DNA of 64,000 nt from Vicugna vicugna (taxonomy: Eukaryota), in contig MU058065.1 in the NCBI GenBank assembly GCA_013265495.1, positions 7,378,302-7,442,301 on the forward strand, read 5' to 3'. The position numbers and the translations under genes were made by a program. Position 1 is the stretch's first letter. Every line of letters starts with the position of its first letter. The notes beneath the pieces are model-generated. The model saw only the letters and a list, made by a program, of their open reading frames with translations, was not told the origin of the DNA and made no database searches. Below, in pieces: positions 17,986 to 62,339 of this stretch.

Positions 17986-19622
17986 GTCCAAGATTTGTAA
18001 ATGGGCAAGATAGGACTGAGTATCCTTTCAGTGGAGAACTAGGCAGTGTCTAGGGTATTTTCTGAAGATTACCTGATTATATTGAGATATTCCCCTTTGA
18101 CTGAACTTCTATTGCCTAAGTTATTTTATAATCCTGTAGAAGTAGAATTCAATTTGTAGAAAACAGAGTGATGCAAGTGATCTTTTCCAAAGCAATATAA
18201 TGAATCTTGTCCAGTAGAGATACAACTGAATTCTACACTGTAGAAAAGATGGCCCCATACAACACATTTTAAGATGCTTTATTTTTAAAAAAGAAGCTTT
18301 ACTGAGACAAAATTTTTATACCACACAATTCACCATTTAAAGTTTACTATTCAATTTTTTTTAGTATATTCACAGGATTGTACAAATATTACCACAAACT
18401 AATTTTTGTCCACCTTGTAAAGAATCTCCATACCTATTAATAGATGTCCCCTATTCCCGTCCATCATTTCCCTTCCCCTCCACCAGCCCTAAGCAACCAC
18501 TAATGTACTTTCTGTCTTTATAGATTTGCCTATTCTGGTGATTTCATATTAATGTAATCATAAATATGTGGTCTTTTGGGACTGGCTTCTTTCACTTAGC
18601 ATAATGTTTTCAAAGTTCATCCATGTAGCTTGTATTAATACTTCATTATTTATTCATTAAATAATATTCAGTCATATGAATATACCACATTTAGTTGATC
18701 TCTTCATCAGTTGGTGGGTATTTGGGTTATTTCTACTCTTTGGACAGTATAACTAATACTTATAGAAACGTTCACATATAAGTTTTTGTGTGGATGTATG
18801 TTTTAATTTCTTTTGGGTGTATGTTTAGCAGTGGAATTGCTGGGTCATATGGTAGGTCCATGTTTAATATTATGGGAAACTATCAAACTATTTTTCAAAC
18901 TGGTTATACCATTTTACATCCCTTCCATCAATATATCTGGATTCCAATTTCTCCACATTCTTGTCAACACTTATTATCATCCATCATTTCAATTATAGAC
19001 ATTTTAGCTGATATAAGGTAATAGCTTATTGTGATTTTCATTTGCATTTCACTAAGGACTAATGATATTGAACATTATTTCATGGACTTATTGACCATTT
19101 TTATATTTTTCTTGGAACAAAGTGCTTAAATGCTTTGTCCATTACGATTTTTGTCTTTTACTATTGAGTTTTAAAGGTGTATATTCTGTCTGTCAATTAA
19201 TCTATAACAAAGAAGGCAAGAACATATAATGGAGAAGAGACAGTCTCTTCAATAGTGGTACTGGGAAAACTGGACAGCTACATGTAAAACAATGAAAGTA
19301 GACCATTTTGTAACACAATATACAATAGTAAACTCAAAATGGATCGAAGACCTCAATGTTAGACCAGAAATCTAAAACTCCTAGAAGAAAACATAAGCAG
19401 AACACTCTTTGACATAAATCATAAGCAATACTTTTTTTGGATCTCTCTCCTAAAACAGAGGAAATAAAAGCAAAAATAAACAAATGGGACCTAATTAAAC
19501 TTAAAAGCTTTTAAACCTTTGACAAAATAAAGCAAAACAAAAAAACAACTTACAGAATAGGAAGAAATATTTGCAAATGATATGACCGATAAGGGATTAA
19601 TTTCCAAAATATATAAACGTCT

Positions 19623-21002
19623 AATTAAATACTACAATAGAAAAACTAGATTTGGTGGATATTTTCAGAGCTTTACACCCCCCAAAAATAGAATATACAT
19701 TCTTTTCAAGTGCACATGGAACATTTTCCAGGATCGATCATGTACTTGGACACAAAAGAAACCTCAACAAATTTAAGAAGATAGAAATTATCTCAAGCAT
19801 CTTTACTGACCACAATGCCATGAAACTGGAAATCAACAACAGAGAAACAAAGGAGAAAAAAAGAAAAGCATGGAGATTAAACAATATGTTATTGAAAAAA
19901 CAATGGATCAATGAGGAAATCAAAGCTGAAATTAAAAAATACCTTGAGACAAATGATAATGAAAGCACAACCACTCAAAACCTATGGGACACAGCAAAGG
20001 CAGTGCTAAGAGGGAAGTTTATAGCGATACAGGCCTTCCTCAAAAAAGAAGAACAATCTCAAATAAACAAGTTAACCCACCACCTGAATCAATTAGAAAA
20101 AGAAGAACAAAAAGCCCCAAAAAGCAGCAGAAGGAAGGAAATAATAAAGATCAGAGAGGAATTAAATACAATAGAGATTAACAAGACCATAGAAAAAATC
20201 AACCAAACCAAAAGCTGGTTTTTTGAAAAAGTAAATAAAATCGACAAACCTCTGGCCAAACTCACAAAGAAGAAAAAAGAGAGAGCACAAATTAGCAAAA
20301 TAAGAAAGGAAAATGGAGAAATTACAACAAACAAAATAGAAATACAGAATATCATACGAGAATATTATGAAAAACTATATGGAACCAAACTGGATAACCT
20401 AGAGGAGATGGACAAGTTTCTGGAAACATACTGTCCACCAAAACTGAATCAAGAAGAAACTGAACACTTGAACAATCCGATCACTAGAAAGGAAATAGAA
20501 ATAGCAATTAAAAACCTCCCTACAAATAAAAGTCCAGGACCGGACGGCTTCACCGGGGAATTCTACCAAACATACAAAGAAGAACTCATACCAGTCCTTC
20601 TCAAACTCTTCCAGACGATTGAAAAGGAGGGAATACTCCCAAACTCATTCTATGAAGCCACCATCACCCTGATACCAAAACCAGGCAAAGACACTACAAA
20701 AAAAGAGAATTATAGGCCAATATCACTGATGAACATAGACGCCAAAATCCTCACCAAAATTTTAGCAAATAGAATCCAACAACACATAAAAAAGATTATA
20801 CATCATGACCAAGTGGGGTTCATCCCAGGGACACAAGGCTGGTTCAACATACGCAAATCAATCAATGTAATACATCACATCAACAAGAGAAAGGACAAAA
20901 ACCACATGATCATCTCAATCGATGCAGAAAAAGCATTTGATAAAATTCAACACCCATTTATGATAAAAACTCTTGCCAAAGTGGGTATAGAGGGAACATA
21001 TC
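19623..21002 (+). mobile_element. Young internal L1 ORF2 fragment (endonuclease C-terminus, Z domain, start of RT); open frame, both ends truncated
   Basis: About 460 uninterrupted codons: [81 protein letters not shown]. Stops at GIEGTY, before the YADD motif, so it is non-functional. Corresponds to ORF 19652-21061. Confidence 0.95.
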
Positions 21003-21367
21003 ATAAACTCATCTTCAAAGGAACCAAACAACCAGATTTTAAAAATGGGCAGAAGACCTGAATAGACATTTTCCCAAAGAAGACATACAGATAGCCAACA
21101 GACACATGAAAAGATGCTCAAGATTACTAATCATCAGAGAAATGCAAATTAAAACCACAATGAGGTGTCACCTCACAGTTGTCAAAATGGCTGTCATCAT
21201 AAAGAACACAAATAACAAATGTTGGTGAGAATGTGGAGAAAAGGGAACCCTTGTACACTGTTAGTGGGAATGTAAATTAGTACAGCCTTTGTGGAAGCCA
21301 GGATGGAAATTTCTCAAAAAACTAAAAATGGAACTACCATATGACCCAGTAATTTCACTCCTGGGTA

Positions 21368-21374
<7 letters not shown>

Positions 21375-21402
<28 letters not shown>
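21375..21402. repeat. (TA)n microsatellite within L1
   Basis: Direct reading. Confidence 0.95.
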
Positions 21403-21407
<5 letters not shown>

Positions 21408-24400
21408 AAAACATCAGTTTAAAAAGATACATGTATCTCAATGTTCATAGCAGCACTACTTACAATAGTCAAAATATGGAAGCAACCTAAGTGTCCATTA
21501 ATAGATGAACGGGTTAAAAAGATGCGATATATATACAAAAATATTACTCAGCCATAAAAAGAATGAAATTTTGCCACTTTAAACAATGTGGATGGACTTG
21601 GAAGGTATTTTGCTAAGTGAAACAAGTCAGACAGAGGAAGGCAAGTACTGTGTGCTATCACTTATGTGTGAAATCTAAAAAAATAAAACTAACTACTGAA
21701 TATAACAAAAAAGGAACAGACTCACACATACAGAGAACAAACTAGTCGTTACCAGTGGGGAGGGGCAAGATAAGGGTACAAAATTAAGAGATACAAACTA
21801 TATATAAAATAAGTAAGTTACAAGGATACATTGTACAGCACAGGGCTATAACCAATATTTTATAATGACTATAAAAGGAATATAATCTATAAAAATTGTG
21901 AATCATTATATTATATACCTGAAACTTATATAATATTGTATGTCAACTTTACATTAATAAAAAAATGTATATGTATATTCTGGTTAGAAGTTCCTCATAA
22001 AATATATGTCTTACAACTATTTTCTCCCATTATGAGGGTTGCCTTTCACTCTCTTGATGGTATTATTTGCAGAATAAAACTTTTTAATTTTAATTTATTT
22101 TTTCTTTTGTTGTTTGTGGTTATGGTGTTATTTCAAAGAAACCATTGTCTGACCAAAGACCATGAAGATTTGCTCTTATGGTTTCATCTAAGAGTTTTAC
22201 TATTTTAGCTCTTACATTTAGATATGTGATACATTTTGAGTTAATTTTGTGTATATTGTGTGGTAAATTTCCAAATTCATTCTTTTGCACGTGGATATCC
22301 AGTTGGTCTTCCACCAATTGTTAAAAAGACTCTTCTTTCCCTATTGAATTGTCTTTGGACCCTGGTTGAGCATCAATTGATCATAAATATATGGATTTGT
22401 TTATTGAGTCTGAGGTCTATTTGATGGATTTATATGTTTATTCTTTTTCCAGTATCATACTTTCTTACTATAGCTTTGCAGTAAGTTTTGAAATTGGTAA
22501 GTGAGTTCTCCAATTTTATCCTTCTTTTTCAAGATTGTTTTAGCTCTTTTGGATTTCTTGCATTTCTATGTGACTCTGAGGATTGGCTTGCCACATTTTG
22601 TGCAAAGGCAGCTTCTGACTTGATAGTAATAGTTTTGTATCTGTAGACCAAACTAGGGAGTGAAGTCGTCTTAATAATAGTAAGTTGTCTGATGCATGAC
22701 CGTGGAATGAGTATCTTCTCATTTATTTAGATGTTTCTCAATCTCTTACAACGATATTTTATGATTTTCCTTGTATGTCTCATTTGTATTTAATGTGTTA
22801 CTAAATATTTTTAATTTTTAATGCTATTGGAAAAAATTAAATTCTTAATTTTATTTTCAAAATTTTCACTGTTAGTGTGTAGAAATACGTGACTTTTGTA
22901 TACTGATCTCGTATCCTTCAACTTTGAATTCATTTATCAGTTTTAATGGTTTTTAGTGAATTTCTTAGGAGTTTCTATACACAAAATCATGCCATGTGCA
23001 AATAGAGTTTTACTTTTTCCTTTCCAATCAGGACGCCATTTCCCTGCTGCTTTTTTCTTGCCTAATTTCCCTGGTTAGAACTTTTATTATGATGCTGAAG
23101 AAGTGAAAAGAGTGGACACTCTTGTCTTGTTCCTGATTTTATAGTGAAAGCATTCAGTCTTTCAATACATAATAGGATAGTGGTGGGTTTTCCATAGATG
23201 GTCAATATCACACGAGTTTGCTGAGTATTTTCATCATGTAGAGTGTTAAATTTTTATCAAATACTTTTTTCTATGCCCATTGAGAAGACCATATGGTTTT
23301 GTCTTTATTCTATTAATAAGATGTGTATTATATTAAGTGATTTGTATCTGTTTAACTAACCTTGCATTTCTGGGAGAAGTCCCACTTGGTCTTGGCGTAT
23401 AATCTTTTTGATATGTTACTTGATTTGATTTGCCAGTGTTTATTGAGTTTTTTTCTTTGTGTATGTGTGTTTATATTCATAAGGGATATTAATCTGTCAT
23501 TTTATTTTCTTATGATGTCTTTTTGTGTGAAGACCCAGTAATGGTCTCAAATAATGAATTGAAAAATGTTCCTGACTTTTGTATTTTTGGAAAGGTTTTG
23601 AAGAATTGTTATTAATTCTTTGAATGCTTGATAAGTTTTAAAATTATGAATTCGGTTGTTTTACTTGTTATAGATCTATTCATATTTTCTATTTATCTTG
23701 AGTAAGTTTCTATAATTTGTGTATTTCTAAGGATTTATCCATTCCATGTAAATTATCTTACTTATTGATATACAGTTGTTCATAGTATTCCCTTGTAAAT
23801 CTTTTTTTCCTTATGTAAGATTGGTAGTGATGTCTCTTCCTTTCCTGATTTTAGTAATTTGAAAAGATTTCTTGGTCTGCCTGGATAAATGCATGTCAAC
23901 TTTATTGATTCAAACATTACATTTTATTATATTATACAGTATTAACCAGTTCTGCATCTGTTAACAAATTCATTTCAATATTTCTGACAGCAAATGTATA
24001 CATATATCTCTGTTCTTCAAATTATCTTTTGAACTAATCTTAATCACTTGCTGGTTCTGTCATTAATTAATGAGTTGAATATAATATTTAATATGTTAAT
24101 TTTATACATTTATAAAATGATATTTTTAAACTAATGAAAATTACATGTTAGCAGAAGGTATAAAAATCAGTGAGGAGTCAGAGAGTGATGGGAAATGAGG
24201 GTGAAGAGAAAGGTATAGGACAGATCATGTAGGTCCTTGTAGGCCATGCTAAGGAGATTGGTTTTTACTTAAGTGAGATGAAAAACTATTAGCATCATCT
24301 TAGACAAACCCATTTTTAAACTGTGGCCTCAGCTATCTGAAATGTCTCTATGCTACCTCAGAATGGAATGAGATTATGGCGCTGGAGATTGCACTGTTAC

Positions 24401-32015: not shown

Positions 32016-32480
32016 ATACAGTGGAATACTATTCAGCCATAAAAACTAACAACATAATGCCATTTGCAGCAACATGGATGCTCCTGGAGAGTGTCATTCT
32101 AAGTGAACTAAGCCAGAAAGAGAAAGAAAAATACCATAGGAGATTGCTCATATGTGGAATCTAAAAAANNNNNNNNNNNNNNNNNNNNNNNNNNNNAAAT
32201 ACAAAACAGAAACAGGCTCATAGATATAGAATACAAACTTGTGGTTGCCAAGGGGGGGTAGGAAGGGATAGACTGGGATTACAAAATTGTAGAATAGATA
32301 AACAAGATTATACTGTATAGCACAGGGAAATATACACAAGATCTTATGATAGCTCACAGAGAAAAAAATGTGACAATGAATATATATGTATGTTCATGTA
32401 TAACTGAAAAATTGTGCTCTACACTGGAATTTGACACAACACTGTAAAATGATTATAAATCAATAAAAAATTGTTAAAAA
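32016..32480 (+). mobile_element. Young 5'-truncated L1 (ORF2 end and 3' UTR), camelid-like
   Basis: YTVEYYSAIK...MPFAATWMLLESVILSE; 3' end aatcaataaaaaattgttaaaaa; probable TSD aaatttttttt (32005-32015, 32478-32488) at a TT/AAA site. Confidence 0.9.
32169..32196. other. Assembly gap (28 N)
   Basis: Run of n inside the A-rich linker of the L1. Confidence 0.99.
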
Positions 32481-35070: not shown

Positions 35071-36961
35071 TTCTTAGGATTACTTTTTGTCACTGCTTCT
35101 AATTCCTGTAGCAACTAGAAAAAATGTAAATATTGTCATTTTTCTTACTGGGAAGCCACGTGTATGTTGAGGAACAACTCCGTTCTGCTTGGAAATCAGA
35201 GGTCTAGGGTTTGAATTCCCCAGATATTGCCCCAGCCAGCTAATGTGGAGTGGGTGGGAAGTGGGGTGCATATTGGATCAATGCAGATGGAAGCTCTGAC
35301 CCAGTATGTATATCTCTTTTTGCTATTCCTTTATGAATCAGTGGGAAGAACTGGATTAGTGAGAGGCACAGAAAAAAGAAAAAAAAAACTAGAGAATTTG
35401 ATGAGTCTATGATTCTAAGAAATATGGCATGTGGGAAGCTGGAATCCAAGGTCGGCTTGGCAGCAGCCAAAGAGGAGGCTGCTTGGCTGCTGTAAGCATT
35501 CAGAGACCACGTGCAGCTGGATGATGCTTCCTCCCACAAAGGCACATGCCTTGAGATATGTGAGGGACAGCACTAGAAGCCCTCTTTTCTTAACCATGTT
35601 GGTATATAGCTATGTGATAAGTCACATAGATCCTCAATTAACTTACTTTCCACTAAAACCAAGTATCTAGACAAGACAAGCTCCAGGATCTCTTTCATCT
35701 CTAACACCCTTTTGTTGATAAACTTTGTTTCATGAAATTATGTTAGGATTAGAATATTATTTTATTCTCCTACTCGAGTAATTGGCCCTTAAATTCCTCT
35801 TAGTAAACATAACATTATCTAATGACCTTTACCCATCTAATGCCCTTGCCATATTTTTGTAGACCTTTATAGCTGAAAAAAAAAACATTTTCATATATGA
35901 AATTTTGTGAGATAGATAACAAAGTAACCACAATTGGTCTCAGCCCTCATAACTGAACTGGGATTTAAGCTTAGTCTCCTGGAGATGTTGCTGCTCTATC
36001 ATTCAGCAAAATCACTCACATATTTCTTTTGGAACACAAACTAGATGCAAAGTACTTTGTTGAACATAAGAAATGCATCATTGAACAAGACAGGTGCAAT
36101 CCATATCCTCAGGTTGCTCATATATTGTTGGGCAAAACAACACTTAATTATAATACAATGTGATGCGTGTGATGGAAGGGGATGGGGCCATCCAGCAGGA
36201 GAATCTAGCCCAGAGTAAAAGCCCATAAAGATCTCATTGAAGAAGTGAAATTTAATTCTGCTCAAGAATGGAATTGCTTTAGCCAGGCCAAAAGGGAGTT
36301 AGGGAAGAATGTTCCAGGCAGTGGGAATAATATGTCCTTTGGATTAAGACAGGATTTCTCTAATAACGTGGATGGGTTGGAGGAAGGAATGTAAGGAGAA
36401 GAACAAGAACAACCCAAGGTAAACAATGGGCAACTAGAAGATTATTTCCCACTGTGTTTACATATAAAATAACTTTTGAGATTGATGATCTACCTGAATA
36501 ATTGCAGCTACCTCACATCGAAACTGGATAAATTTTGGATAATTTAATAAAACATTAAATCAATATGTATCCTGGGAAGTCTATGAAACTCTGAATGCCT
36601 GCCACATCCATAGCCCTCATCTATGGAAAGAATCCACAACAGGTAGTCCCCTTCCTAGAGGTCAATCAAGTTTGTACCATGTGACCTTCAAAACCCTGGA
36701 GACATCTGATTGGACCAGGGATCGATGTCTGAGACATTGGTAGTCATAAGAGGTGCCCCCAGGGAAGGACTATATTTCACAGAAGTGTAAGAGACTGGAT
36801 AGTAACTGAAGGATCTAGTCAGTATATCTGAAGGTAAAGCAGAAAGACAAGGAGGACAAGAGATGCTATGACTGCAGAAAGCTATAGAAACCATGAGTAA
36901 GAAGAAATCATGCTGAGTGTGCAGGGGGTTAGAGAAAGAACAAGAGTAGGTAAATACAGTT

Positions 36962-37073
36962 CAAGGGAGCAGGGGGCAAGGGAGGAGGGGGGGCAAGGGA
37001 ACAGGGGGCAAGGGAGTAGGGGGGGCAAGGGAGTAGGGGGGGCAAGGGAGTGAGGGGGCAAAGACAGTAGGGG
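36962..37073 (+). repeat. G-rich minisatellite, ~7 units of 15-17 bp (caagggagtaggggggg)
   Basis: caaggga recurs at 36962, 36977, 36994, 37009, 37026, 37043. Confidence 0.9.
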
Positions 37074-37129
37074 ATGGGGGAGGAGGAGGATGAAGGCAGA
37101 AGTAGTAACAGAAAGAAGCAGAATTGTAG

Positions 37130-37641: not shown

Positions 37642-37774
37642 GTGGAGGGGTATAGCTCAGTGGTCAAGCATGTGCCTGGTGTGCCTAAGGTCCTTGGTTC
37701 AAACTCCAGTGCCTCTGTTAAGGGGGGGGGGGAATAAATAAGCTAAATTTAATATTTAAAAAAAAAGAAAAAAA
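37642..37774 (+). mobile_element. tRNA-derived SINE (camelid vic-1-like)
   Basis: ggaggggtatagctcagtgg (A box) ... ggttcaaactcc (B box), A-rich tail. Confidence 0.8.
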
Positions 37775-38850: not shown

Positions 38851-40090
38851 TGCACAGCCTGTGTCTGGAGCCTGTGACACACTATTTGAGGTGATCCTTC
38901 AGGCTCTTCTTCTCCCACCCCGTGCCTTTTGTTAAGTCTCAACACCAATTGGGAGAGCCTTGGATTCCTATTGCATGAATATCAACCTGGGAGTTAGGCT
39001 GTGGTCACCACCAAGTCCATGGTGCTGTTTGGTAGTTAACGTATGTGGTAGTAGAGTTTAGCCTCAGTGTTGTTTGTTTTTCAACTCTGCATGGAGTAAC
39101 TTGATATTTCTGGGTGTGTTTTCAATTTTCTTGGCAACTAGAGCATCATAGGACTGTATTTCCCACCCTTACTCTCTGGGTTTTGCCACATCTTTTCTCC
39201 ACCAGCCCTTCTCTGAGTCTCCTCCCACACCAGAATCTGATTGGTCCTTCCCTGGAAGTCCTTTAAAACTATATTTGTCACTTTCTTAGGAGTCATATCT
39301 TTATTCTAGTGGTACATGTGCTTATCCTTACTATGCCTTGTTTAGAGTAGGAGCCCTTAAATGAGTCCTTGCCTGCTTTACCTTTAAGTAGCTTGGTGTC
39401 TGCCATGTAGGGGCACATAAAAGACGCCCAGTGAACCAAAGAGCTGTGAACCCACCCTTCGGGTCACCCAGACTGCATGAAGTAAGGGGACTTTGATGAG
39501 TCACAGGCCCTACTGGTGTAAAGAAAGATTCAAGGGACCAGCAGCACCATCTGACATCAGTTTTCAAGCTCTCCATTGCTTTTCCTGGAAGGATCATGAA
39601 CTTAGCACTGTTACACTCCACTGGTTCTAAGACTTGGGGCTTTCAGTTACTACCATTCATTGTTATGAATCTACTCAGGAAACATTTATGAAGTGCCTAC
39701 TTGTAGCTGACTGAGGGCCCAGGATTAAGAAGACTAAAATGTGAGTCTTGCCTATGAGAGGCCATGGTCTGATGGGAAACATAAATGGAGGCAAAAAACT
39801 AAAATTCAATAGCAAAAAGAAATGTTAACAGTAGAGATGTGAGCAATTGGGAGCAAGTGGACCACAGTGAAACTTTTCACAGTAAAATGTTGGGAGAATA
39901 AAGGGAGTGACTGAATCTTTGGATGTTCTTTGAAGTAGAATTTGAGCAAGAAAACGGAAGAAACTAAAGACCTGGAATGACCTGTTTTTTGCTGCACTTT
40001 TCTCCAACAACACGTGCCAAAGCTCAGAAACATGAGGGAGAAGGTATACTTTGGGTGATGATGAGTACTTCTGTACTGAGATAAGGGTGC

Positions 40091-40732
40091 TTGAAAGAGG
40101 GGCAGAGTTTATAGTGGCTAAAAGTACAGACATCCTAGGTTCAAATGCCAGCTTGGCATTCACTAGCTTTGTAACCTGGGAGAAGTTGCTCAAGATCTTT
40201 GTGCTTTAATTTTTTAATCTATAAAAATACGGGTAACATTATCTACCTTATAAGACTGCTTTCAATGTTAGATCTGTTAACATCATCATCATCATCACCA
40301 ACATCATCTTAGGAAAGCTTATCCTCTCAATTCATCAAAGCTTAGAGTCTTCTCCCTGGCTCCACCTCACCCCTTGTTGAATGAGAAGCTTCTAGAGAGA
40401 CTCAGCTAGAAGCGGAAAGGAAGAGCGAGAGGAAGAGCCACAGTGAATGAGGTTGGGGTAAACTGAATGGGAGTCTGGGGTCCAAGAAAGAAAGTCAAAC
40501 ACTCAGGTACCAGTCAGATAGATGAACACAAGAGACCCCAGGCGTTTGCTCATGTCAACCTCATGCACGTGGCTTCTAATGCTATATTTAAAATGTTGGT
40601 GAAATTATAATCCTGTTGTAGTTCCTTTGGAGGCTGGTTCATTAATCTAGGCAGTGTGTGTGGCTGGCAGGTAGCCAGCATCATCCCCTGACTCCCATCC
40701 CCATGTGACTCAGCACAAATCAGACACTTTAA
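40091..40732 (+). repeat. Inverted repeat, left arm (642 bp; includes a MIR at ~40108-40300)
   Basis: Ungapped match to reverse complement of 44122-44763; 11 mismatches by manual alignment. Confidence 0.97.
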
Positions 40733-40910
40733 TATCTTCTGATCCCAAGTTTGAACTTGCCCCTAAAGAAAGCCTGCCTCTCCCTATCCACTTTCTCCCC
40801 ACCTTCACAATCCATACCCCACTTCCAATTTATCAGCTAGTAAATTCTGAGTTGAACTTGGAGCCAGAGTTTCATTTGGTTTTGGCAAAGAATCAACTTC
40901 TTCCAAGAAA

Positions 40911-40913
<3 letters not shown>

Positions 40914-40942
<29 letters not shown>
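40914..40942 (+). repeat. Poly(A) run
   Basis: Direct reading. Confidence 0.9.
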
Positions 40943-40944
<2 letters not shown>

Positions 40945-42010
40945 AGGCTGTGGAAGGGAAGGTTTAAAAAAAGCCTAGCTAAACAAAAAGGGCTCATGGA
41001 AACAGCCCCACAACATTAAGTAACTCAGTGCAGAGTGCAGAGAGAGCAGTTCTTTTTGATGCATTAAGTGCGGATGAATTTAAAACAATGTTGGAAATGC
41101 TCTGAACATGCAATTGGGGTTACCAACAAAGCACAGATAGGCTCCTGGTTTGGAGAGGTCATGGGATCACCAGTCATTAGCGGGTGACTTCAGAGCTGGA
41201 GAGAGGGTCTGGAGGTGATCATGGCACCCACACTCATTTTCATTCTGGATTGTGTAACATCCTTACGCTTGTGAATAGCAGAAGATTTGGTGATCTAAGA
41301 CTCTGCCCTGTTGGGTCTGTCAACCCCCTGAAGACCAAGAGACATTTCTGGCAGTGTACAGTATCCCAAGCTACAGAAAAAGACGTGGGAGTGGTTCAAC
41401 TCCACTTATAATGAGAAAAGTACAAGTCAAACTATCAAACTGGAAAAAAAATTAAGTTTGATCATCACCGTCAGCTTGGAAAAAATATTTTAAAGTTTAA
41501 TAGCATCCACTACTGGAATTGGTAGGGGAAAATGGCCACTCTCTAACATTGTAGCTTTTAATGTAAATGCTATTACCCTTTTGGAAGGAAATTTGACCAT
41601 ATTTTTCTCTGCTTCTGTTATCCCCCCTTTTTTCATTCCTTCTTTCATTCATTCTCCTTCCACAGGCCATCATTCCCCATATATTTAATGTTTATTATTT
41701 TGCATATATTCTTGTAAAATGTGACATACTGATTTTTTTCTCCATTTTATTTTAGTTAAACTTTTTATTGAAGTATAGTTGATTCATTTCAGATATATAG
41801 CATAGAGCAATTCAGTATTTTTACAGATTATACTCCATTAAAAGTTACTACAAGGTAATGGCTATAATTCCCTGTGCTATACAATATACCCTTGTTGCTT
41901 ATCTATTTTATACATAGTAGTTTGTATCTCTTAATCCTATACCCCTAACTTGCCCCTCCCTGTTTTCCTGGTAACCTCTAGTTTCTTTCTATCTGTGAGT
42001 CTGTTTCTAT

Positions 42011-42155
42011 TTTTTGTTTGTTTGTTTTTTGTTTCTTTTTATTGGGGGAGGTAATTAGGTTTATTAATTTATTTTTTAATAGAGGTACTGGGGATTGAAC
42101 CCAGGGCCTCCTGCATGCTAAGCACCCACTCTATCACTGAGCCATACCCTCCCCT
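42011..42155 (-). mobile_element. tRNA-derived SINE (camelid vic-1-like) nested in L1
   Basis: gaggtactggggattgaacccaggg...ctgagccataccctcccc; T-rich tail; flanked by tgtttctattt / tgtttctgttt. Confidence 0.88.
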
Positions 42156-42548
42156 CTTGTTTCTGTTTTGCTGCATAAATTCATTTACATTATTTTTTAG
42201 ATTCCACATGTAAATGATATCGTACAGTATTTGTCTTTCTCTGTCTGATTTATTTCACTAAGCTCAATATTCTCTAGATCCATCTGTGTTGCTGCAAATG
42301 GCAGAATTTCATTCTTTTTATGGCTGAGTTATTTTCCATTCTATATCTGTATACATACCACATCTTTTTTAGTCCATTCATCTCTTGATGGACACTTCAA
42401 TTGCTTCCATATCTTGACTATTATAAGTAGTGCTGCTATGAACATTGGGGTGCATGTATCTTTTCTAATTAGTGTTTTCATTTTTTTCCAAATATATACT
42501 AATAAGCAGAATTTCTGGACTATATGGAAATTCTATTTTTACTTTTTT

Positions 42549-42567
42549 AAAACATTTTTTATTGATT
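42549..42567 (-). mobile_element. Ultra-short L1 3'-tip insertion
   Basis: aacattttttattgatt matches the young L1 terminus seen at 59593; flanked by tattttta(c/g)tttttt duplicates. Confidence 0.7.
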
Positions 42568-44121
42568 TATTTTTAGTTTTTTGAGGAACTTTCATACTGT
42601 TTTCCATAGTGGCTGCAGCAATTTACATTCCTATCAGCAGTGTACAAGAGTTCCCTTTTCTGCACATCCTCCCAACATTTGCTTTTTGTAGACTTTTTGA
42701 TGATAGCCATTCTGAGAGGTGTGAGGTGATACTTTGTTGTTGTATTGGTTTGCATTTCTCTAATAATTAGCAATTTTCACATGCTTGTTAGCCATCTATA
42801 TGTCTTCTTTGGAAAAATGTCTATTCAGGCCTTCTGCCCATTATTTGATTGGGTTGTTTGGTTTCTTGATATTGAGTTGTATGAGATCTTGGTATATTTT
42901 GGATATTAACCCCTTATCAGTCATATCATTAGCAAATATTTTCTTCCATTCAGTAGGTTGTCTTTTTGTTTTGTCAATGGTTTCCTTTGCTGTGCAAAAG
43001 CTTTTAAGTTTAATTAGGTGCCATTGGTTTATTTTTGCTTTTATTTCTTTTGCTTTAGGAGACAGACCCCCCCTCCAAATTACTATGATTTATGTCAGTG
43101 TTCTGACTATGTCCTCTTCTAGGAGTTCTCTAGGAGTTTTAAGGTTTTAAGTCTTATACTGAGTTCTTTAATCCATTTTGAGTTTATTTTTGTATACAAG
43201 AAAATGTTCTAATCTCATTGCTTTATATATGACTATTCAGTTTTCCCAGCATCACTTATTGAAGAGACTGTCTTTTTCCTCCACTGTATACTCTTGCCTC
43301 TTTTGTCATAGATTAATTGATCATATGTTCATGGGTTTATTTCAGGGCTCTCTGTTTTGTTCCATTGATCCATGTGTCTGTTTATGTGCCAGTATCATGC
43401 TGTTTTGATTACTGTAGCTTTGTAGTATAGTATGAAATCTGGAAGGGTGATACCTCAAGTTTTGTTTCTTTTCCAAGATTGCTTTGGTAATTTAGGGTCT
43501 ATTGTGATTCCATATGAATTTTAGGATTATTTGTTCTAGTTTTGTAAACATGGGTATTTTTATAGGGATTGCATTAAATCTGTGGATTGCTTTGGGTAGT
43601 ATGGTCATTTTAACAATATTAATTCTCCCACTCCAATAGCATGAGATATCTTTCCATTTCTTAGTAGCATCTTCAATTTCCTTCATCAGTGTTTTACAGT
43701 TTCCTTATATAGGTCTTTTACCTCCTTGGTTAAGCATATTCCTAGGTATTTCATTTTTTTGAAGTGATTTCAAATAGTATTTTCCAAAACTTTCTCTTAC
43801 TGATATTTCATTTTCAGTGTACAGAAAAGTAACAGATTTCTGTATATTAATTTTGTATCCTTCAACTTTGTTGAATTCATTTATTTGTTCTAATAGTTTT
43901 GGAGTGAAGACTTTAGGGTTTCCTTTGTAAAATATTGTGTCATTTGCAGATAGTGACAGTTTTACTTCTTCCCTTTCAATTTGGATGTCTTTTATTTCTT
44001 TTTCCTATCTTATTGCTGTTGATAAGACTTCCAATACTAATTAAATACAATGTTAAATGTGTTAAATACAAGTGGTAAGAGTAGCCTTATTGTCTTGTTC
44101 ACAAATTTAAAGGAAAGGCTT

Positions 44122-44763
44122 TTAAAGTGTCTGATTTGTGCTGAGTCACATGGGGTTGGGAATCAGGGGATGATGCTGGCTACCTGCCAGCCACACACAC
44201 TGCCTAGATTAATGAACCAGCCTCCAAAGGAACTACAACAGGATTATAATTTCACCAACATTTTAAATATAGCATTAGAAGCCACGTGCATGAGGTTGAC
44301 ATGAGCAAACGCCTGGGGTCTCTTGTGTTCATCTATCTGACTGGTACCTGAGTGTTTGACTTTCTTTCTTGGACCCCAGACTCCCATTCAGTTTACCCCA
44401 ACCTCATTCACTGTGGCTCTTCCTCTCGCTCTTCCTTTCCTCCTCCAGCTGAATCTCTCTAGAAGCTTCTCATTCAACAAGGGGTGAGGTGGAGCCAGGG
44501 AGAAGACTCTAAGCTTTGATGAATTGAGAGGATAAGCTTTCCTAAGATGATGTTGGTGATGATGATGATGATGTTAACAGATCTAACATTGAAAGCAGTC
44601 TTATAAGGTAGATAATGTTACCCGTATTTTTATAGATTAAAAAATTAAAGCACAAAGATCTTGAGCAACTTCTCCCAGGTTACAAAGCTAGTGAATGCCA
44701 AGCTGGCATTTGAACCTAGGATGTCTGTTCTCTTAGCCACTACAGCCTCTGCCCCTCTTTCAA
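44122..44763 (-). repeat. Inverted repeat, right arm (642 bp)
   Basis: Reverse complement of 40091-40732; abuts the L1 5' truncation point. Confidence 0.97.
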
Positions 44764-44890
44764 CCAATTTCTCTAGTGATAGATTCTCAACTTGCCTCTA
44801 ACTCTACACTTTTGCCAAAAAACGAAAAAAAAAAAAGATGTAATGATCATTGTTGTATATGTTTCTTTATGAACATGTATGAAAATTTTT

Positions 44891-44892
<2 letters not shown>

Positions 44893-44926
<34 letters not shown>
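44893..44926. repeat. (TA)n microsatellite
   Basis: Direct reading. Confidence 0.95.
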
Positions 44927-44930
<4 letters not shown>

Positions 44931-46129
44931 CTCTATCTCTCTATATCTATGTTTATATCAAGGTAGAATTACTGAGTCATAGTATATGAATGTATTTAAT
45001 TTAATTAAGTAGTACATCAATTTGAAAACATCAACTCAAATTTAAAATTTTACATATTTGACTTGGCATTGTTAAGAATGTACCCTATAGATAGAATTCT
45101 GTGTGTTTACCAAGATAGACATTTAAGGATATTTAGGGAAATACTGTTTATATTAGCAAAAGCATGGAAAGTGCTGGTGTGTCATGGGAATAGACATTTA
45201 AGTGTGTCCCTAAGAAGGGTTACTCTGCAGAGAGGGAGAGAGCACAGTCTCTGAGGAGCAAACCCATTGACTGACTCCTTGGTTCCATACCTCTTGACTG
45301 TGTACTTTGCGCAGGTACTTACCTTTTTTTGCTTCAGTTCTTTCAATGGTATAAGTCTCAGCCCTGAATTAGTGAGAGAAGATGGCAGTCTCTCAAATGC
45401 AGAAAGCAAGCTGTATTATTATTAATATTAGTATCGATTCCCTATTAAAGTCATTGAGTCAGATCGAGATGTGCTGCAGTGGGGTTAGGTCTCCAAGACA
45501 CCACATTAAAGAAAGAAGATCTGGGCTTAGTGTAAGAAATATAAACCCCTTTGTATAAAAGAGATATTTTAAAAATTGGTTAATGGTCAGTGTGTTTGGA
45601 GAGAGAATCTAAAGTTTACATGGGAGTGGGGAGAAGCTTTCATTTTTTATTTTCTCCCTTCTGTTACAGTTGTACTTTCATGCATGACTTTTAATTTTCA
45701 AAAATGTCAACAAGTGTTATCTGGGTGTTGAGTTCATGGGACATGGCTTTCTGTTTTTATTATTCTATCATAGTTTTTAAAAGTATTTGTAAGTTTAAGA
45801 AGGAAGTATGTTACTGAGAAGTGCACTGTGCTGGAATATTCTAAGTATGAAAATTGGTCTAAAATAGTATTTTTGAGACTCTTAAGGCCTCTGGTGTGCT
45901 CATTATTTACTACTGAAGGGTCACCTTGGCCTCACATTCCCTTCCTTTCTTAGTTCTAGAATCTGTGCCTGGAATGAGTGATTTTCAATAGGCTTAAGCA
46001 GTAAGACATTCCACAAAACAAGTTCTTGCTGAGTGGGGAAAAATATATACCACTATATGATTCCTTGAGATTTTATGGATCTGTATATGTAGATTTTATG
46101 GATATGTGCAAATACATATACATATATTA

Positions 46130-59583: not shown

Positions 59584-59856
59584 TTTTTTTTTAACATTTT
59601 TTATTGATTTATAATCATTTTACAATGTTGTGTCAAATTCCAGTGTTCAGCACAATTTCCCAGTCATTCATGGACATATACACACTCGTTGTCACATTCT
59701 TTTCTCTGTGACTTATCATAACATTTTGTGTATATTTCCCTGTGCTATACAGTGTAATCTTGTTTATCTATTCTACAATTTTGAAATCCCAGTCTATCCC
59801 TTCCCACCCTCTACCCCCCTGGTAACCACAAGTCTGTATTCTCTGTCCATGAGTCT
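59584..59856 (-). mobile_element. Young L1 3' UTR fragment, same family as 32016-32480
   Basis: ttttaacattttttattgatttataatcattttacaatgttgtgtcaaattccagtg; TSD core catggatg (59576-59583, 59865-59872). Confidence 0.9.
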
Positions 59857-61790: not shown

Positions 61791-62339
61791 TGTTACACTA
61801 TCCCCTATAATAGTGGATTATATCACCTTGCTTTGTCTTATCCACACAGTTCCTTTCACAAGCTTTAATTATTTACTTGCTTATTTGCTTACTAGCATCT
61901 TATCTATTTCCTACATTAGACTGTGATCTCAATGAAAAAGGATACTATCTATATTTGGTCACCATCAGATCCTCAATATCTTCACAGTCCCAGGTGCTCA
62001 GTAATAATTTATTAAAAGAATAAATAAATCTAATGTCAGGTGTTTTTAAATTTTGGATCCACGAACCATTCAGGAACACGTGGATGAGTTTCAGGAGATA
62101 AATAAACCTTTTAAAATTATATACAAATGTTTGTATAAATTTGTGTATGTGTTTTTTCTCCTCATGAGCAGGAATCCATAACTTTCATTAGAGTTTCAGC
62201 ATATTAAGACCTGACAGGTAAGGGACAGTGCACCTACAAGAAGAGATGTAAACATGTACAGCTGTTATTAGAATTTTATAATATTGATGTTAGTAAAAGT
62301 ACATGGGAGCACAGAGGAAGAATTTAGTCTCTCTTTCCA

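Follow-up and report, generated by a model that had tools for sequence, protein, structure and literature searches.

How can the two arms of an inverted repeat be almost identical when the L1 element lying between them is old? The question is raised by a locus in a 64,000-nt window of the Vicugna vicugna genome (assembly GCA_013265495.1, MU058065.1:7,378,302-7,442,301, forward strand; all coordinates below are positions in this window), where a 5'-truncated L1 is joined at its truncation point to an inverted copy of nearby DNA. An earlier note, made from the sequence alone, had described an ungapped inverted repeat between 40091-40732 and 44122-44763 with a 3389-bp spacer. This was confirmed, 631 of the 642 sites being identical and 11 mismatched, and the full extent proved slightly larger, at 645 bp without gaps, with 12 mismatches and 98.1% identity (Table 1). 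The reading that we favour, with a probability of about 0.5, is that the duplication would have formed when the complementary DNA (cDNA) of the inserting L1 folded back on nearby DNA, and that the arms would later have been homogenised by arm-to-arm gene conversion.

The repeat is by a wide margin the strongest match in a self-comparison of the 64 kb. A search of the assembly (2.03 Gb, 12,405 contigs) with 39700-41400 returned five matches, namely the query locus, the right arm and three MIR pieces of 60-85 bp; no third copy of the arm was found in this search, which skips very common words. Among 51 other fetched loci (3-5 kb apiece, 199,910 bp in total), inverted matches of at least 100 bp occurred twice, at 71% and 73% identity. 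Homology past the arm ends was absent on the inner side (P 0.12-0.26) and borderline on the outer side (P 0.04-0.10 for three lengths), and at neither end of the left arm does the boundary cut through a detected repeat. Twenty of 24 listed public sequencing runs (9 studies, 2 organism labels) contain 0.90-0.98 of the words of 39300-41400, a comparison that covers the left side only. One 22-letter pattern taken from the arm had no exact match in metagenome contigs.

Table 1. Features of the inverted repeat, the L1 and their surroundings
Feature	Position	Strand	Evidence
Left arm, donor copy: MIR relic, CAT repeat, then unique DNA	40088-40732	+	self-match, genome search
Outer-edge cluster, 6 differences in 36 bp; partner 44729-44764	40090-40125		
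MIR relic within the arm	40116-40283	+	profile from 28 other copies
Perfect block 1, 275 bp; partner 44454-44728	40126-40400		
Middle cluster, 4 differences in 13 bp	40401-40413		
Perfect block 2, 278 bp; partner 44163-44440	40414-40691		
Inner-edge cluster, 2 differences; partner 44156-44162	40692-40698		
Putative AP-1/ARE-type motif; second copy at 44139-44148	40706-40715	+	motif scan
Spacer of 3389 bp, made up of the L1 and 1 kb of older DNA	40733-44121		
Very old L1 relic	41390-41595	+	0/60 shuffles
5'-truncated L1 with its decayed tail and 3' end at left; best scored paralogues 74-81% identical	41760-44121	-	profile and paralogue matches
tRNA-derived SINE nested in the L1, head 42080-42151; 4/106 private differences	42014-42157	-	Rfam, paralogues
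Right arm, derived inverted copy, joined to the L1 truncation point	44122-44766	-	self-match, paralogue junctions, relic boundary
Very old L1 relic starting at the outer end of the arm; similarity may enter the arm by about 12 bp	44767-45021	-	44767-44890: 0/60 shuffles
Probable old L1 relic	45030-45230	+	3/60 shuffles, weak

Both the 3' end of the L1 and its tail, although decayed, are present at the target according to the profile and paralogue matches. Nine of the 18 L1 paralogues tested align up to 44121. Past this position eight of the nine read TCAG and one reads TTAG, whereas the window reads TTAA, so that one nucleotide of microhomology at the junction is certain and three nucleotides are the maximum. 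The aligned paralogues thereby bear out the claim that the arm abuts the L1 precisely where the element is truncated, with very little microhomology at the join. The right arm starts precisely at the L1 cut, position 44122, and ends against an older L1 relic; because it is bounded in this way it is identified, from its sequence context, as the derived copy and the left arm as the donor, as had been proposed. Two other sources of sequence at an L1 5' end were rejected: twin-primed 5' inversion of the L1, the arm having no L1 profile match and consisting of MIR and unique DNA, and 5' transduction, the L1 being cut internally and the sole other copy found being local and inverted.

The L1 itself serves as a clock. 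Of 35,890 candidate paralogues 40 were scored, and the nearest of 29 compared is 17.9% apart from the window copy. Against family-majority columns the window L1 carries 169 private differences in 1866 (9.1%), together with 20 private indels and a nested short interspersed element (SINE) that itself differs from its family at 4 of 106 sites. With a mutation rate of 2.5e-8 per generation and a 5-year generation (PMC8605555), 9% divergence corresponds to about 18 million years. Since the L1 is this diverged, arms that were born with it and left untouched should differ by about 18%, with some 116 mismatched sites and about 12 indels. Observed are 12 mismatches (binomial P 3e-39; P 4e-14 against the 58 expected at 9%) and no indel. 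A slower rate of 2.5e-9 per year would place the same 9% at about 36 million years. The arms are thus more alike than the age of the L1 permits; either homogenisation followed, or the duplication postdates the L1. Plain, untouched co-insertion is ruled out by this clock, and the "well preserved" simple co-insertion of the earlier note is not supported by it: the high preservation is an anomaly, not the mark of a clean event.

The differences between the arms are as informative in their placement as in their number. All 12 are confined to three clusters, at the outer edge, in the middle and at the inner edge, and leave two perfect blocks between them. Two such blocks arose in none of 200,000 uniform simulations, a statistic that was picked after the data had been seen. 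A two-rate hidden Markov model gained 10.9 log-likelihood units over a uniform rate, which was matched by none of 1500 null sets; on a coarse grid its best rates were 0.0001 and 0.18, and the higher rate equals the divergence expected from the age of the L1. Both results rule out a uniformly diverged young duplication. In the left arm alone, three differences of the middle cluster bring a hairpin to its full 8-bp stem, which pairs 40388-40395 with 40406-40413, and they may therefore represent a single templated mutation; completion of this kind was equalled by 106 of 5000 random clusters, and the folding z was -1.8 (11/200 shuffles). Treating the hairpin changes as one lowers the gain to 7.7, which none of the 1500 null sets matches either. 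Patches diverged to nearly the level of the L1 age around identical cores are the trace that conversion would be expected to leave. Efficient mammalian recombination needs roughly 200 bp of perfect homology, and the blocks are slightly longer than this. The clustering is shown, as are the anatomy, the junctions, the age of the L1 and the excess identity of the arms.

From these we infer the joint arrival of L1 and arm, a fold-back intermediate and conversion, in the following manner. Target-primed reverse transcription would extend the plus strand from about 41760 to 44121. Because the cDNA of a minus-strand L1 is the plus strand, and the template lies on the same strand on the poly-A side, the switch would be a fold-back of the cDNA end. 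With its terminal T, this end would anneal by 1-3 nt to positions 40730-40732 of the plus strand, which lie on the poly-A side about 1 kb behind the target and would be exposed by resection or strand opening. It would then copy the plus strand leftwards from 40732 to 40088, over 645 nt, and the copied strand would rejoin the far end at 44767 without a clear target-site duplication. Afterwards the arms would be homogenised by arm-to-arm gene conversion or by fold-back template switching in replication, which would erase differences in the two blocks of about 275 bp and spare the edges and one middle cluster. Locally templated additions at L1 insertions have been described as a class (bioRxiv 10.1101/2024.12.14.628481; PMC10191854), as the earlier note had stated. 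The structure is most likely neutral and no function is proposed for it.

A rather unlikely alternative is a later repair patch made without L1 activity, in which the DNA broke, or a fork stalled, close to the old L1 and the site was filled with a microhomology-primed inverted copy of neighbouring DNA, the 5' part of the L1, the target-site duplication and some flank being removed and conversion being optional. Fork stalling and template switching (FoSTeS), microhomology-mediated break-induced replication (MMBIR) and synthesis-dependent end joining are mechanisms of this type. The patch requires no L1-specific step and accounts for the absent target-site duplication and for a possible, weakly indicated loss of some 100 bp of flank; one hairpin-templated mutation can explain the middle cluster, and a young event would give the high arm identity directly. 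However, a young unconverted patch predicts scattered differences, whereas those observed are clustered (P about 1e-5 or less; 0/1500 null sets), six of them falling within the outermost 38 bp. If the patch is old and conversion followed, the pattern is accounted for, but a chance deletion across the L1 5' junction is required.

It is decidedly unlikely that the perfect blocks are artificial, made by an assembler or polisher that merged isolated differences or by an arm misplaced in gap filling. The number of contigs, a 28-N gap within the window and the dependence of the right arm on this assembly would allow such an effect, and differences placed as here, close to unique flanks or tightly clustered, would be expected to survive bubble merging. 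Yet a toy model with 2-8% uniform divergence and removal of isolated differences reproduced the pattern, at each level, in no more than 3 of 20,000 runs; the right arm joins cleanly at its two ends, has no N in the vicinity and bears alleles of its own. Moreover, arms 18% apart would share hardly any 31-letter words and hence would not be merged, so that a genuinely high identity would be required regardless. Very improbable, in our estimate, is an RNA template, in which the L1 reverse transcriptase switched to a nearby plus-strand transcript and copied 645 nt, conversion following afterwards. The orientation is compatible with a plus-strand template, and one nearby pre-mRNA has been reported as co-inserted with an L1 (PMC10191854). 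Against this, the copy bears no splice or poly-A signature, and no exon was detected in the window: of the 139 open frames scanned with Pfam, out of 162 of at least 70 aa, 138 had no match and one a sub-threshold match, a scan that short exons would escape. Rfam returned two tRNA-like SINE heads and no other RNA family. The plus-strand transcript that the earlier note admitted as a template thus finds no support in the window, although DNA and RNA templates cannot be told apart by sequence alone.

Several observations weigh against fold-back duplication followed by conversion. As had been noted, no convincing target-site duplication is found at this old site; the best candidates agree in 8 of 9 letters, in AT-rich sequence, and do not lie at both junctions. 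The best high rate of the two-rate model falls to 0.10 once the hairpin changes are counted once, and the GC content of the perfect blocks (38.5% and 46.8%) shows no excess over the 43% of the flanks. Ancestral letters could not be read for either arm from MIR copies: the columns of the outer cluster were unresolved with 19 copies, and the 28-copy profile favours the right allele by only 3.3 bits. The age of the L1 could be lowered by a closer, unscored subfamily, with the indels and the nested SINE keeping a floor under it. The older L1 relics in the flanks were tested by alignment against 28 L1 paralogues and compared with 60 shuffles. Pieces of old L1 do flank the insert, as previously suggested, with firm support at 41390-41595 and 44767-44890 and weaker support at 44930-45035 (2/60 shuffles). 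The stretch directly left of the L1, 41600-41760, has L1 similarity at chance level (53/60 shuffles), so that a single old element running through the insertion site is plausible but unproven. One weak alignment, at face value, gives about 100-115 bp of missing flank, and this suggested loss is also compatible with a later deletion. Published inverted duplications lie at the reciprocal end and in one study measure 52-220 bp. Finally, the right arm is known from one assembly of one species.

Resection and self-annealing at L1-made ends are the subject of preprints by Mendez-Dorantes and colleagues. They yield inverted duplications with 2-bp microhomology at the reciprocal end (bioRxiv 10.1101/2024.12.14.628481), and in an earlier version of that work a cDNA-extended end folded back after 6271 bp of resection (PMC11702581). 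Three fold-back duplications (0.3%) with 52-220 bp of added synthesis are reported in PMC10191854. The present locus resembles these local inverted duplications in that nearby DNA stands inverted on a truncated L1 5' end, with about 2 bp of microhomology and a self-annealing explanation. Those published are fresh, arose in somatic tissue or cell lines, concern the reciprocal end and are short (PMC10191854), whereas the donor of the present locus is found 1 kb off on the poly-A side, and the duplication is 645 bp long, old and germ-line. The geometry comes closer to the fold-back of a cDNA-extended end (PMC11702581), resolved as a simple insertion, and the templated-insertion supplementary figures of these studies may hold an identical one. 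The available part of PMC12016303 contains nothing on local templated additions at L1. As in L1 chimeras and twin priming (PMC13174262; 10.1101/2024.08.27.596794), foreign or inverted sequence would have come to stand on an L1 5' end in a single event; unlike in those, the added piece is neither L1 nor known RNA, and its only other copy is local DNA.

Later conversion between the arms would be in line with studies of palindromes and of neighbouring repeats. Arm-to-arm conversion is described for human X and Y palindromes (PMC3723533, PMC8981503), and Caenorhabditis inverted repeats with intergenic arms of 124-160 bp are kept alike by conversion (PMC1803023). Neighbouring Alus convert one another as well; for adjacent repeats the range of conversion is about 10 kb (PMC8230782). 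The present repeat shares with these an arm identity far above its age, a freely evolving spacer and patchy identity. Identity exceeds what the age allows provided that the duplication shares the age of the L1, and a patchwork of identical tracts with residual divergent patches, mostly at the edges, is present. It differs in being small, apparently non-coding and mammalian, in holding a nested L1 and SINE as a clock, and in being known from a single species. As with human polymorphic inversions between inverted repeats (5.1-226 kb, genotyped; PMC3961182), a segment of a few kilobases between near-identical opposed arms could flip, sometimes recurrently; unlike those, it is known here from one assembled orientation alone. 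Titles and abstract openings, with subscription journals mostly outside the scope, yielded no germ-line locus that combines an L1-linked inverted duplication with conversion.

L1 fold-back duplication and arm conversion are both already known, and no new mechanism is put forward. If confirmed across camelids, the locus would be a dated natural experiment, in which the age is read from the L1 and the extent of homogenisation from the arms, and the block sizes would indicate over what tract scale a short non-coding inverted repeat undergoes conversion. A further consequence would be that fold-back outcomes seen in cells and tumours become fixed in germ lines, and the locus would warn that a highly identical local inverted duplication need not be young.

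The MIR relic within the arm was matched by the 28-copy profile from 40127 in the left allele (E 4e-22) and from the equivalent of 40116 in the right allele (E 4e-23). The motif scan found the AP-1/ARE-type motif three times in the 64 kb, once in each arm and once at position 2167, and each arm also has an E-box, at 40566 and 44283; these motif sites are putative. As both arms carry the pair, the duplication may have doubled a possible enhancer. A wider proposal, possible but doubtful, is that with an L1 of about 18-36 million years the fold-back repeat has been in concerted evolution ever since, with conversion blocks of about 275 bp, a flippable 3.4-kb spacer and synchronised copies of the AP-1/ARE-type motif and the E-box. 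If true, L1 would make small, long-lived invertible cassettes, a general self-dating class with a built-in clock for conversion rates. The inner end of the donor, 40727-40732, coincides with what we presume to be an L1 endonuclease-type motif, one of five in 40601-41760; it overlaps the T/A microhomology and offers a weak lead. A long A run lies in the spacer at 40915-40943.

Searches of the assembly with the two old L1 relics returned the locus itself alone. The 41390-41595 relic's end and the 44767-45021 relic's 5' end fall at almost one L1 position (corresponding to about 42595 of the younger L1), which may be fortuitous or reflect an earlier inversion-type event at the site. A TA microsatellite occupies 44892-44927, inside the old relic to the right of the arm.

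Elsewhere in the window, a permuted L1 at 19192-21965 (plus strand) has a 1.38-kb ORF2 piece (about 19620-21002) between parts that are contiguous in paralogues. The piece holds a 478-aa open frame, oddly intact given that the compared paralogues are 73-75% identical, and it may be a younger, tail-less insert in an older L1. The 28-N assembly gap lies at 32169-32196, within an L1 3' region, and 32214-32480 matches 59588-59856 in inverted orientation at 87%; a shorter inverted match of 65 bp joins 1443-1507 and 2208-2272 at 86%. The second tRNA-like SINE head is at 37646-37717 (plus strand). The sub-threshold Pfam match, at 61948-62184 (minus strand), is to PF21709, with 21.8 bits against a cut-off of 27, and is probably due to chance. 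A G-rich array of 15-17 bp units at 36940-37086 contains seven overlapping copies of a 49-nt reference.

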